Shown here: positions 30,741 to 41,434 of the stretch, in pieces
Layout of the letters: each line of letters begins with the position of its first letter
How positions within the stretch are numbered: position 1 is the stretch's first letter
Sequence record: PZ386967.1
DNA from: a phage
Length of the DNA stretch: 64,000 nucleotides
Strand: one strand, 5' to 3'
The notes under the pieces: model-generated
What the model saw: only the letters and a program-made list of their open reading frames with translations
Database searches by the model: none
Told to the model about the DNA's origin: nothing
Position numbers and translations under genes: made by a program

Positions 30741-32351
30741 TTACTCTTTGGTGCCGAAATTACCACCATTGTCTTTTAATTCTGCCTTGATGTCAATCTC
30801 ACCCGGACCCGTAGGGGATGCAGGGGTTGCACCTGACAGAGAAGAAGCGCGACCAGCACCTTCGGCATATATGATGTTACCATTGATCGTCTGAGCGACA
30901 GTCAGTTTGTCAGCGATTATCTCAGTCGTTAGAATCTTAGGAACCTTCAATGTCCCACCGACCTCCAGAGTCTCGCAGATAATGCGCAGAATATTCTGCG
31001 CTTGCATTTCCGCTAGGTCACTGAATTTCATCAGCGCTGTGCCCGCAACCACGTTGGAGTAATTGTTGGAATGCAAATGATAGACCTCACCTGTCTTGCG
31101 CTGAACTTCAGTTCCTTTGACCGTCAGGTTGTGGTCCCCGCCGACATAATAACGCTTGTTGAACATCGTCAGGTCATAGTGGTCTTTGACGGACTTGTTG
31201 ACCACATCACCATCCGGCAACATTTGCTTGTAAGACCCAGACTTATGCATCCAGTGAAGACGTTCACCACCAGGGGTGTCGTCCACTTCCATAATATGCC
31301 CAGCTCGGGACACCATGACGTTATTGTACGGGTATTTAGATCCACCCGCAGCCGGAACCATGGTTTCTCCAGTGTTGTCAATATCCTGTACTCGCCCAGT
31401 AGGAGCCGGAGTCGGTTGTTCCTTTGGGGTACGATCTGGGATAGGTTCTGACCATTTACCATTCTGCTGCGCAGGCGCGGCTGTGGCTGTGTTAGCAGGA
31501 CCAGGCCAACGATATCCCAAGACCGAAGAACGTCTGAAACGACTGACCTTCACTGAATCGGATTGGTTGCCACCAATACACCAGACATAGTTTGCATCGA
31601 ACTTCTGCACAAACGCTACGTGTCCAAATGTGGGGTTGTTACCACGCCGGAAGACTACGATAGCGCCATATTGTGGTGCTGACAGTGCAGTACCCCATGT
31701 AAGGTAAGATCGGGCAAGAGCGGAGCGTGTAGACGTGTATCCAGCCTGTATCATAACCCAACCCACGAACGCCGCACACCACGACACTTCATCTTCAGAA
31801 GCACCAAGGGAGGTTGTCTTGTGATATTCTATAATGCGCGGGTTGTTGTTGAACTTTCCGGCATACTCCTTGATACCTAATTCGCCACGAGCGATTGTCA
31901 TCCACTTCTCTGGATCATACCCACCAACAGGTGGTTGTGGATCTGGTTGTGGTTCGTCTTCTTGTTTCACAGGAACGTCAGTGACAGCGTTGTACGCCTG
32001 ACGTTCTACAGATTGAACGACCTGCCCGAGAGCCAGTGGGTTTGTGTCGGCGCCATCAGTAGGACTTGAACCAGTCCAAGTCCAGGTGATGCGTAAATTC
32101 TGGTATGCTTCGTCAAGGGCGAACCCCATAACCTCAGTACCAGGAATGATACCCGTTGGAGACCAACCTAAACCAGCAGAGGAGGCGTTAGAAGCAGGCA
32201 TCAGTACCTTCGCCCACGGGAGTTTGTCTGTAGGCAGGAGGACGGGATCGTCGGTGTGTACGCCATAGATGCGGACGGCGACGCGCCCGTTTTGGTCTGG
32301 ATCGTTGACATCTTCAACGGTGCCGTAAAACCATCTCATATTGTCTAACAT
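30741..32351 (-). CDS. 5: Baseplate central spike gp5-like with CHAP peptidase domain
   Basis: N-terminal OB-fold spike motif (VEDVNDPDQNGRVAVRIYG); central CHAP-like Cys/His pair (SWCAAFVGWV and GHVAFV). Confidence 0.7.
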   Translation of the reverse strand: MLDNMRWFYGTVEDVNDPDQNGRVAVRIYGVHTDDPVLLPTDKLPWAKVLMPASNASSAGLGWSPTGIIPGTEVMGFALDEAYQNLRITWTWTGSSPTDGADTNPLALGQVVQSVERQAYNAVTDVPVKQEDEPQPDPQPPVGGYDPEKWMTIARGELGIKEYAGKFNNNPRIIEYHKTTSLGASEDEVSWCAAFVGWVMIQAGYTSTRSALARSYLTWGTALSAPQYGAIVVFRRGNNPTFGHVAFVQKFDANYVWCIGGNQSDSVKVSRFRRSSVLGYRWPGPANTATAAPAQQNGKWSEPIPDRTPKEQPTPAPTGRVQDIDNTGETMVPAAGGSKYPYNNVMVSRAGHIMEVDDTPGGERLHWMHKSGSYKQMLPDGDVVNKSVKDHYDLTMFNKRYYVGGDHNLTVKGTEVQRKTGEVYHLHSNNYSNVVAGTALMKFSDLAEMQAQNILRIICETLEVGGTLKVPKILTTEIIADKLTVAQTINGNIIYAEGAGRASSLSGATPASPTGPGEIDIKAELKDNGGNFGTKE

Positions 32352-32685
32352 ATTGAGTTCCGGTTGTCAAACAAGGATTTGAAGGTATTTATGCGCAGCT
32401 GATTTTGCCTTATATACTATAGGAAGCTCTGCTTCCGTTCATTTTATTTGTTTTATTCGATCCTATTCGCTTCGCTCATCAAACCGCCCTATGCGGGCAG
32501 CACCATTCCAATGCCATGGAGGCATAAGGGCGAGGCAATAACTGTACACCCCAGAACACTCCTTGAAAAATGGTATTTTACTGACAATCTGATTCAAAAC
32601 AGACAAACACCAACAAATGACTCGGGAACAAGCCCATTATAGCAATTTCAGGTAAAAAGAGCGCGTGTTAACCGATTTTACAGTT

Positions 32686-32716
32686 AAGCCAATAAAAATC
32701 CCGCCGAAGCGGGATT
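32686..32716 (-). terminator. Rho-independent terminator for the minus-strand gene ending at 32864
   Basis: AATCCCGC-ttcg-GCGGGATT followed by TTTTTATT on the minus strand; coordinates approximate. Confidence 0.5.
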
Positions 32717-32863
32717 ACTGTTTCTTAGACAACCTGACCTTGAGGGCTTCGGTTAACAAGTCAAGATGCCATGGCATCGACTCGTTGATTTCAAATATGC
32801 TATAGCCGTGTAACTTCAATTCATCACACATCACGAAGTAGGATAATAAATCAGTTTCAAACA

Positions 32864-33670
32864 TTAAATGAAAATTTCATTAATACTATTGAATTCGATT
32901 TTGTGCTCCTTACCACATTTCGGACACTTGATCGAACTCTTGTAGTGGATGCGCGGTATTTTATGGAAGAAGTTCTTCGTAATGCTGTCAATAACATCTG
33001 ATTCGATGTTATCCTTCACCCACTCAACAAACGCTTCTTTCACACGGCGGCGCTCAGTAGCCTCTTCCGGAGTGATTCCGATTTCTTCAGGATTCTCAAC
33101 CTTCCACACCTGACCGTCATCATCGTACAGACAGTCGATAAAGGTGGCCAGCATCATCTCAACGCTTGCAGCATCAGACAGTGCCGTAGCGTCCGAGAAG
33201 GAAGGTTGGCGCATCTTGAGGTGATATCCACCTGGCAGGTCAAACGTCTCCCGGAAGCCGTCCTGAGCAATGCATTTGACGTTGTTCAACGGGATAGGTA
33301 GAGTCAGTTCCTGCTCACAGGGAACCATCTGGTGCTTTTCTTGACCATCTCCCAGATCGATCGTTTCTTCAATCTGATTATTGCACTTATAACGAATCTT
33401 CATCAATTCACCGATGGAGATCATGCGCATGCGGATGAACACTTCCTCAACAACGCCGATTGGCAGTTTACTGAAAGGTGCGCCTGCATTTACACACTCG
33501 CTAAAGAGACTCTCCATCATGGCCGCGCGTTCTTCAATCGGCGTTTGCGGATCTGACACCTGAAGTAATAAAGTTTGTTGCCCCGCAGTAAAGGCGCGAT
33601 ATTTGATCACAGTAGGCCAAAAGTCGCTTTTATATGTCTTTTCTGTTCTGGGCAATGATGGTAAATTCAT
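32864..33670 (-). CDS. Hypothetical protein with C-terminal CxxC motif; possible baseplate-associated by position
   Basis: Start trimmed to MNLPSLPRT with GGAG RBS; C-terminal KCPKCGKEHK. Confidence 0.5.
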   Translation of the reverse strand: MNLPSLPRTEKTYKSDFWPTVIKYRAFTAGQQTLLLQVSDPQTPIEERAAMMESLFSECVNAGAPFSKLPIGVVEEVFIRMRMISIGELMKIRYKCNNQIEETIDLGDGQEKHQMVPCEQELTLPIPLNNVKCIAQDGFRETFDLPGGYHLKMRQPSFSDATALSDAASVEMMLATFIDCLYDDDGQVWKVENPEEIGITPEEATERRRVKEAFVEWVKDNIESDVIDSITKNFFHKIPRIHYKSSIKCPKCGKEHKIEFNSINEIFI

Positions 33671-41360: not shown

Positions 41361-41434
41361 TTTAAGTTCAGAAACTGTTCAAAAGATGAAGGGGCTGCTA
41401 TAATAGCAGCTCCTTTTGTTTATTGGAGCAGTTT

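Follow-up and report, generated by a model that had tools for sequence, protein, structure and literature searches.

The leader of gene 32 of bacteriophage T4 carries a translational operator, in which a 5' pseudoknot is followed by an unstructured A/U-rich tract that is bound cooperatively by gp32. The nut sites of phage lambda (boxA/boxB) and the put sites of HK022, two per genome, are cis-acting RNA hairpin modules that alter the behaviour of RNA polymerase at terminators. Tandem G·A pairs flank the short stem II of the hammerhead ribozyme, and 5'-CGAG-3' placed opposite 5'-CGAG-3' gives tandem sheared G·A pairs, such sites often being bound by proteins. The late enhancers of T4 are random nicks or forks, and its oriE/repEA region is close to gene 5 on the T4 map. 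The locus considered here is a non-coding gap upstream of the gene for a gp5-like baseplate hub protein/tail lysozyme, on the minus strand of a 64,000-nucleotide stretch of phage DNA (PZ386967.1, hereafter the window), which was recognised as part of an Ackermannviridae (Aglimvirinae) genome by its match to relatives. The gap belongs to a family-wide, three-copy structured element, which has no Rfam match and no description in the literature searched.

Two further groups of described elements are relevant to this locus. The origins oriF and oriG of T4 consist of a promoter and an A+T-rich unwinding element within ~100 bp and work through an R-loop, while oriE has iterons and an early promoter (PMC3016281). 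The T4 origins share no sequence motif, the active ones tend to lie at points of divergent transcription, and oriE is near repEA (PMC3016281). The PeSLs of T4-type phages are numerous, are found in hyperplastic regions by ORFans and comprise a terminator stem-loop, a -35/-10 promoter, a Shine-Dalgarno (SD) sequence and a start codon (PMC4122927).

Like the gene 32 operator, the element is found in a phage of the T4 superfamily, has a small H-type pseudoknot followed by an A/U-rich stretch, lies upstream of a gene and is presumably a nucleation site for a protein. It differs from that operator by two more hairpins, by its three copies (upstream of gp5, gp6 and gp45) and by the lack of sequence similarity; a translational operator of this type was rejected for the window, where a hairpin and a late promoter separate the fold from the gp5 ribosome-binding site. 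With nut and put, which are placed after a promoter and ahead of a long operon, the element shares the organisation in hairpin modules of few copies; it has no sequence or structural homology to them and is located upstream of T4-type late promoters. The T4 origins are similar in occurring at several places in a genome, each with a -10 box of the sigma-70 type and a downstream A+T-rich stretch; one copy of the element has tandem repeats, two copies are at points where transcription diverges, and one is next to gene 5, as is oriE. Unlike the T4 origins, the copies share a conserved pseudoknot and hairpin fold. The window has both a -10-like box and an A-rich stretch, ~180 nt from each other (within ~100 bp in the definition of oriF/oriG). 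PeSL and PmSL cassettes (PMC2839356, PMC4122927) are likewise repeated, recombination-prone intergenic stem-loops with a -10 box in the T4 superfamily, but the element has only three copies, fixed core loci and a multi-helix fold; its assignment to the PeSLs was rejected, there being exactly three model matches in 155 kb, at core structural or replication genes. The succession of GA, a short Watson-Crick stem with its loop, and GA (UGAUGA...GAA in the window) resembles hammerhead stem II and the (5'-CGAG-3')2 motif, but the hammerhead core is unconserved in homologs, the helix runs past the G·A pairs and Rfam gives no match. A K-turn or box C/D-like motif was rejected too: GA/GA is present, but the flanking stem runs on without a 3-nt bulge.

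A query of 391 bases around the gap matched 270 phage records. Identity to the window was 93-99% in Aglimvirinae (for the gap region, 99% in the Escherichia phages YX22, A221 and RPN242 and 94-96% in Shigella phage Ag3 and Dickeya phage LIMEstone1), ~70-74% in Kuttervirus and ~67-71% in Taipeivirus. The comparison with related phages that an earlier note on this DNA had proposed thus finds the gap kept, at similar length, in ~270 phage records. The distant members Erwinia phage Bue1, Serratia phages KNP4 and MAM1 and Vibrio phage K357 also keep the succession of gp26, a small open reading frame (ORF), a gap of 185-340 bp and gp5. A core of 44 nt is 78-82% identical between the window and Kuttervirus/Taipeivirus; in the same comparison the flanking gp26 and gp5 coding DNA is 63-75% identical, below the core, and other parts of the gap fall to 38-55%. 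Under the match the records list the two flanking genes (gp5 and the small ORF), hypothetical proteins or "none", and in the records inspected the structured element carries no annotation.

The conserved heart of the non-coding stretch (32453-32534, minus strand) is predicted to fold on the gene-sense strand only. Its first hairpin is H1 (AUGCC-UCCAU-GGCAU, 32525-32511), which together with the linker UGGAAUGGUG occupies 32503-32525; the loop bases CCAU (32519-32516) pair with AUGG (32506-32503) of the linker. Next is the hairpin H2 (CUGCCC-GCAUA-GGGCGG, 32484-32500), which, with H1, makes up the 44-nt core mentioned above, and then H3 (32455-32483), a 'GA hairpin', in which the box GAGC-GAA-GCGA (32477-32467) of a ~32-nt repeat is enclosed by a weak flanking stem. 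The comparative evidence comes from an alignment (A1) of 15 cores from upstream of gp5 and gp6, which is also the base of a covariance model (R1). In this alignment 96% of the H1, H2 and H3 cells are paired, against 23-45% with the partners slid, and five pairs change on both sides, or six once the pseudoknot pair is counted (96-97% of cells paired). H1 can pair in 15/15 sequences, and two of its pairs are compensated (AUGCC/GGCAU versus CAGCC/GGCUG in the gp6 copies). H2, also paired in all 15, occurs as GCCC/GGGC, GCCU/AGGC and GUCU/AGAC, two pairs being changed on both sides, and has a conserved U·G that is possible on the gene-sense strand only. The CCAU/AUGG pairing is kept in 15/15, with a matched change from A-U to C-G in all six Taipeivirus copies, which indicates that the H1 loop and the linker form an H-type pseudoknot, this compensation representing only one or two independent events. 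RNAalifold recovered H1, H2 and H3 without guidance.

The GA hairpin has a regular layout of a stem, tandem G·A, two Watson-Crick base pairs and a tri- or tetraloop. When 16 instances from six genera and all three loci were aligned, 8/8 pairs covaried, 89% of cells were paired (24-45% in the slid controls) and both GA dinucleotides were invariant; several gp6 copies have, in place of the loop, a GC-rich insertion by which the stem is lengthened. Thus, compensatory changes are seen in all four predicted helices, H1, the pseudoknot, H2 and the GA hairpin. The sense strand was predicted to be the more stable one in 24/24 cores and in 14/14 GA hairpins, and on the opposite strand the conserved U·G would turn into a C·A mismatch and the conserved G·A into a C·T one. 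Two other pairings were considered and rejected. A long-range pairing of the 5' G/U-rich part with the 3' A-rich part, present in the minimum free energy structure of the 234-nt stretch, is given no support by the relatives; an anti-Shine-Dalgarno role of the H1 loop (CCUCCAU) towards the SD region of gp6 (AUGGAG) would require compensation that the Taipeivirus changes do not provide, and the pseudoknot explains the loop better.

The repetition of the element elsewhere in the genome is new relative to the earlier note. In close and distant relatives BLAST located it in two or three places per genome; neither BLAST nor a motif search found a second copy inside the 64-kb window, the other copies lying outside it. 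Model R1 was applied to 155 kb, made up of the window and the remainder of the RPN242 genome, and gave exactly three matches, with 97 bits upstream of gp5, 76 bits upstream of gp6 and 25.5 bits upstream of gp45. Each match is in sense to the gene that follows it, and a late-promoter-like box lies downstream of the match. In RPN242 they are located at ~45.0, 88.95 and 132.9 kb, that is ~44 kb apart twice and 67 kb apart across the ends. The gp6 and gp45 copies are at points of divergent transcription, the former at the major switch that separates leftward structural genes from rightward ones. The gp6-upstream gap (345-366 bp in Aglimvirinae, Kuttervirus and Taipeivirus) holds a paralog with H1, linker, H2 and H3 in the same order, preceded by a further GA hairpin, H0. 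The copy upstream of the sliding-clamp gene gp45 is partial, consisting of two GA hairpins only; it was seen in RPN242 as a 32-nt near-copy of the H3 box in a 361-bp gap, and this gap is conserved in 274 records. Directly 3' of the GA hairpins RPN242 has an iteron-like 19-nt tandem repeat, CTTTATTAAAGATAATAAC, in 2.5 units (L050 11301-11347). In the LIMEstone1 record an antisense 'putative middle promoter' (a Mot-box-like GCTT and a -10 box) is annotated over the complement of the GA box in the gp45 copy (L132 454-475); since the stems covary, this site is read here as a hairpin instead.

Pattern scans of IMG/VR and inspection of the fetched loci extended the distribution of the element to the distant genera. 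Erwinia phage Bue1 has a longer element (~150 nt) three times and Serratia phage MAM1 at least twice, upstream of gp5, of gp6 (Pfam Gp6-like) and, in Bue1, of gp45. The Vibrio phages K357 and K362 carry an identical 40-nt cassette immediately ahead of the ribosome-binding site of gp5 and once more in the gap upstream of gp6, composed of GTATAAT, a short spacer, the GA hairpin GGGGU-GA-GC-GAA-GC-GA-ACCCC and then AUAAUCCCCUUUA. The gp6-upstream gap of K362 is ~780 bp long and also contains a direct repeat of ~85 nt (L129 ~1143-1230 and 1313-1400) and three annotated coding sequences (CDS) of 33-42 aa, two of which overlap or adjoin copies of the repeat; this repeat region may be another non-coding element. 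Within genomes the copies exchange sequence. In the lineage of the window the gp5 and gp6 copies share a near-identical stretch of 52 nt, which differs around the 3' arm of H1 and the start of H3. H2 of the gp5 copy (32484-32500) is identical to that of the gp6 copy in L117 and differs by one loop base from that of RPN242 (L130 5223-5320), while in Ag3-like phages H2 differs between the gp5 and gp6 copies. The sharing of H2 within a genome, together with its difference between related genomes, indicates gene conversion between the copies.

Neither known RNA families nor wider sequence collections contained a counterpart. The covariance-model scan for known structured RNAs proposed in the earlier note gave no match: a permissive Rfam 15 scan of the window returned only terminator-driven sub-threshold matches (E>=0.2), and that of seven related loci one chance-level match (E=0.13), below the gathering score. 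When the core motif ATGCCTCCNTGGCATTGGAA was looked for in collections of metagenomes and bacterial genomes, 18/18 matches were chance ones without flank similarity, mostly inside coding sequences (e.g. several Bacteroidota homologs of one gene), so that at this stringency there is no host counterpart or wider distribution. In the literature on transcription of Ackermannviridae, Kuttervirus, Viunalikevirus and Dickeya phages, neither a transcript map nor a prior description of the element was found.

The earlier note had offered a regulatory RNA, an origin or a decayed gene as interpretations. The first is the best supported of the three, given a conserved gap without a conserved ORF, strand-specific covarying helices, a supported pseudoknot and three paralogous copies per genome, and the last is unsupported, no frame being kept from genus to genus or from one paralogous copy to another. 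The element is probably a structured non-coding RNA module, undescribed in Rfam and in the literature searched, which regulates transcripts entering late genes. For the fuller proposal, of a composite regulatory region upstream of gp5 in which the three-copy element acts in cis as RNA, the chances are judged to be about even. According to it, the minus strand would be organised as the terminator of the gp26/49-aa operon, a spacer, a TGcTATAAT box, ~200 nt of non-coding sequence and the late promoter, and the element would be part of non-late transcripts, which would begin at the TGcTATAAT box or result from read-through of the upstream terminator. Its fold might serve as a compact protein-recognition domain, and the fate of the transcript (termination or read-through, processing, stability) would be set before gp5, gp6 and gp45. 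A role as RNA is favoured because a pseudoknot, wobble pairs and invariant bases in the loop and at G·A are what RNA domains that bind proteins typically have, and the fixed sense orientation beside particular genes suggests a cis action on transcripts entering from upstream.

Several points weigh against this proposal. Transcription of the element, its action as RNA rather than as single-stranded DNA, the binding of a protein and the regulatory outcome are all inferred. In the enterobacterial phages the late promoter is downstream of the element, and late gp5 mRNA would consequently not contain it. The TGcTATAAT box has no -35 box in the window, its critical last T is lost in Kuttervirus and LIMEstone1 (TATAAC), and the gp6-upstream copy has no obvious equivalent. 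Regarding the fold, the outer stem of the window's own H3 is poor, the advantage in folding of the 234-nt stretch as a whole over shuffled sequences is only modest (z=-1.9), the covariation comes from few independent events (~4 clades plus paralogs), gene conversion between copies is evident, and the counts for the GA hairpins are biased, this set being partly picked by a scan that required a stem. Single-stranded DNA hairpins also tolerate G·T and sheared G·A, although a pseudoknot is more typical of RNA.

The main rival, a rather unlikely one, is an explanation at the DNA level, in which each copy is one of three replication origins or a clamp-loading 'enhancer' site; the three spaced copies (~45, 89 and 133 kb of 155 kb) speak for it. 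As an origin, it would start replication via an R-loop, as T4 oriF and oriG do, from a promoter-driven transcript and/or hairpins of the non-template strand by the A+T-rich stretch; as a clamp-loading site, its transcript or hairpins would make a single-strand/duplex junction, at which gp45 is loaded and the adjacent late promoter activated. In each copy hairpins occur together with a -10-like box and an A+T-rich stretch, an iteron-like 19-nt repeat is present in the gp45 copy, and the gp5 copy shares with oriE the proximity to gene 5. The iterons and the early promoter of oriE, near repEA, and the tendency of active T4 origins to sit at divergent transcription, as the gp6 and gp45 copies do, are in agreement with this (PMC3016281), and structures on the non-transcribed strand upstream of late promoters would be placed where the nick of the T4 late 'enhancer' must lie (PMC2988020). 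However, T4 origins have no common motif, whereas a defined fold is common to the copies; for a DNA element, a pseudoknot that contains a compensated pair is unusual; the gp5 copy is off a strand switch, with no GC- or AT-skew anomaly around 32.4-32.7 kb beyond that of gene orientation; and the sites have no linked initiator protein or nickase. It is hardly probable that the copies are sequence-specified late-transcription 'enhancers' and/or origins, whose fold, as nascent RNA or as hairpins of the non-transcribed strand, stabilises an R-loop or a single-strand/duplex junction; if so, the clamp loader would place gp45 there, and key late operons (gp5, gp6 and gp45 itself) would be activated at fixed sites, unlike in T4. 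Also unlikely is a trans-acting small RNA (sRNA) of ~215 nt that stands alone. It would extend from near 32629 (~7 nt after TGcTATAAT) to the hairpin T near 32415, with paralogous sRNAs from the other loci, and its action would be on targets of the host or the phage, or through sequestration of a protein. The promoter-like box and a GC hairpin with a U/A-rich tail do bracket a core that is conserved above the neighbouring genes, and Bue1 has a compact unit of ~135 nt with TATAAT, a 5' hairpin, two GA hairpins and a strong GC hairpin, but hairpin T has no proper U-tract on the sense strand (UAUAGUAUAU), its + strand tail being the better terminator, and is missing from most gp6-upstream copies; the -10 box is degenerate in Kuttervirus, and the fixed sense orientation by particular genes suggests action in cis.

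Another explanation, an improbable one, could be that the gap contains ordinary signals only (terminator, promoters, spacer), and that its conservation and repetition result from recombination or gene conversion of PeSL-like promoter-terminator cassettes without any selected fold. The terminator, the -10-like boxes and the late promoter are all there, conversion between the gp5 and gp6 copies is visible in H2, which is the same within a genome and different between related ones, and PeSLs are a precedent for repeated modules of a stem-loop and a promoter in T4-type phages (PMC4122927). PeSLs, however, are numerous and occur in hyperplastic regions, whereas the element has only three copies at the same core loci from Escherichia to Erwinia, Serratia and Vibrio phages; its stems change in sequence with pairing kept, while loop, linker and GA positions are invariant, and its core is conserved above coding DNA. 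A decayed gene or a translated micro-ORF, beginning with MPPWHWNG... (20 aa, minus strand) or, in another frame, with MALEW..., is very improbable. Read in the ATGCCTCC frame, the best-conserved 24 nt vary at three positions, all of them third codon positions, and an ORF of 20-21 aa is open in three genera, but its ATG has no Shine-Dalgarno sequence and is missing in the gp6 paralog (CAGCCTCC), the peptide is unconserved past residue 8, the ATG of the other frame is CTG in Taipeivirus, PHROG gives no matches, and the compensated pairs explain the same bases. There is next to no chance of a hammerhead-like ribozyme with H2 as stem I, UGAUGA-GC-GAA-GC-GAA as core and stem II, and the next bases as stem III. 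The window (UUGAUGA-GCGAAGC-GAAU) and the relative L025 (CUGAUGA-GCGAAGC-GAAU) come near to this, with tandem G·A around a short stem as in stem II; a hammerhead, which needs CUGANGA...GAAA, the A15.1-U16.1 pair and three stems, is nevertheless effectively refuted by comparative sequence, as the core is lost in Kuttervirus (UUACGAGC..GCGAGU) and Taipeivirus (UCACGAGC..GCGAGU), the window has U at the place of the A15.1-U16.1 pair, the helix passes the GA pairs in other copies, and the Rfam scan matched no ribozyme family even at E<=10.

Ackermannviridae (Vi1/Kuttervirus, CBA120, LIMEstone, the Klebsiella Taipeiviruses) are widely used as therapeutic and biocontrol phages, while their transcription programme is essentially unmapped. 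The element fronts two baseplate operons and the sliding-clamp gene, which points to a regulatory layer based on RNA or DNA structure, in a form not present in T4. With its defined helices, its three loci and the invariant bases in the loop and at G·A, it offers a testable handle on the timing of late expression or the start of replication, and the element should be respected when these phages are engineered or annotated.

The signals around the core follow each other along the minus strand. The intrinsic terminator of the gp26/49-aa operon (32690-32716), announced in the earlier note, was confirmed: it has the form AATCCCGC-TTCG-GCGGGATT followed by TTTTATT, with the stem at 32716-32709/32704-32697, the TTCG loop and a T-run to 32691. 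The 8-bp stem includes five GC pairs and overlaps the stop codon of the 49-aa ORF, in accordance with a Rho-independent terminator. It covaries between genera (AACCCCAC..GTGGGGTT and AACCCCGC..GCGGGGTT), and a terminator is annotated at the same place in LIMEstone1, Magnus and Mooltan. The conserved spacer (32645-32689) contains three words of 6-7 nt in direct, inverted and direct orientation (CTTAAC, GGTTAAC and TTTACC; CTTACCT, AGGTTAAG and TTAACCT in Vi01), as read from alignments, and is a candidate for two mutually exclusive hairpins or an operator-like site. The sequence GGTTAACA is also present upstream of the gp45 copy in LIMEstone1 (L132 ~319-326).

The extended -10-like box TGcTATAAT (32636-32644), a candidate sigma-70 promoter P1, is a perfect match to TGnTATAAT, and four sites of this type were found in the 64 kb with 1.2 expected. 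The position of TATAAT is kept in most relatives, with TATAAC in Kuttervirus and LIMEstone1 and TATAAA in L018; its status as a promoter is uncertain. The 5' part of the candidate RNA (32526-32635) consists of a variable G/U-rich stretch (32635-32575), 38-52% identical to Kuttervirus/Taipeivirus, and a conserved stretch, AAAAUACCAUUUUUCAAGG...CUCGCCCUU (32574-32526), 67-74% identical to them; the motif AAAAACYAYUUUUC recurs in the gp6-upstream and Miltonvirus copies. The core is followed by the A-rich stretch AUAAAACAAAUAAAAUGAAC (32437-32454), an A+T-rich stretch being present after H3 in every copy. Next comes hairpin T (32412-32436 including its tail), the GGAAGC hairpin seen by the earlier note, which was located at 32436-32422 on the minus strand (GGAAGC-AGA-GCTTCC) and continues into the TATAAT-like sequence given above as its tail. 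Its stem covaries (GGAUGC..GCAUCC in Taipeivirus, GGCGGC..GCCGCC in Erwinia phage Bue1), with UAUARUAUUA always next to it, and it could be a weak sense terminator, an antisense terminator with the T-rich + strand tail, or a promoter-associated hairpin. What had been described as a near-late-promoter is CATAAATA (32386-32393, minus strand), a T4-type late promoter for gp5 predicted 35 nt before the ATG and annotated as a putative late promoter at the same spot in the LIMEstone1 record. ATAAATA is invariant across Aglimvirinae, Kuttervirus and Taipeivirus, and the site has a TATAAATA-like -10 element and no -35 box, as expected of a T4-type late promoter. Of the late machinery (gp55/gp33/gp45), gp33 is annotated in Bue1 and gp45 in RPN242 and LIMEstone1. 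The remaining 32352-32385 would be a short 5' untranslated region of gp5.

The gene order on the minus strand is gp26 baseplate hub, the 49-aa ORF, the gap, gp5 hub/lysozyme and gp25. The gp26-like gene (32864-33670) matches Pfam PF12322 T4_baseplate (E=1e-46) and is annotated as gp26 in relatives; the gp5-like gene (30741-32351, ATG at 32351) was taken from the ORF list and relatives' annotation. The 49-aa ORF (32715-32864), which lies inside the reported island, judging from its sequence relationships is a real conserved gene: its start codon shares bases with the gp26 stop (TAATG), the records of LIMEstone1, Ag3 and RPN242 annotate it, homologues with the MPWHL motif sit after gp26 in Erwinia, Serratia and Vibrio Ackermannviridae, and among the PHROGs it has a match to phrog_9633 (E=3e-39) and a weak one to phrog_634 'baseplate hub assembly catalyst' (E=4e-4). 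Its product may be a miniature gp51-like baseplate hub assembly factor, which fits the T4 gene order 26-51. As 32715-32864 is coding, the long gap upstream of gp5 stands, but with a size of 363 bp (32352-32714) instead of the ~510 bp stated in the earlier note; likewise, an intact protein in relatives, which that note had named as a refutation, applies only to the upper 150 bp, an ordinary small gene, and not to the rest of the gap. Elsewhere, according to the relatives' records, neighbouring annotated genes overlap or are <=~75 bp apart.

Within 32352-32714 no ORF is conserved across genera or paralogous copies, indels break the frames and PHROG gives no matches. The 64-aa ORF of the + strand (32448-32642), rightly called unconvincing before, has no PHROG match, suffers a 1-nt indel in Taipeivirus, and in Kuttervirus its peptide diverges after 20 residues, so that it is listed as a non-gene; a 47-aa minus-strand ORF was rejected together with the other coding hypotheses on the same grounds of unconserved frames and absent PHROG matches. 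A search of the window for tRNA and tmRNA genes found none. Two observations concern other parts of these genomes. The DNA polymerase of RPN242 (L130 13840-18022) is annotated as two CDS with inserted ORFs between them, i.e. as a split or interrupted gene. Between two + strand genes of the window, at 41385-41420 (+), a terminator hairpin GGGGCTGCTATAATAGCAGCTCC is followed by TTTTGTTT, and its loop holds a perfect TGCTATAAT.

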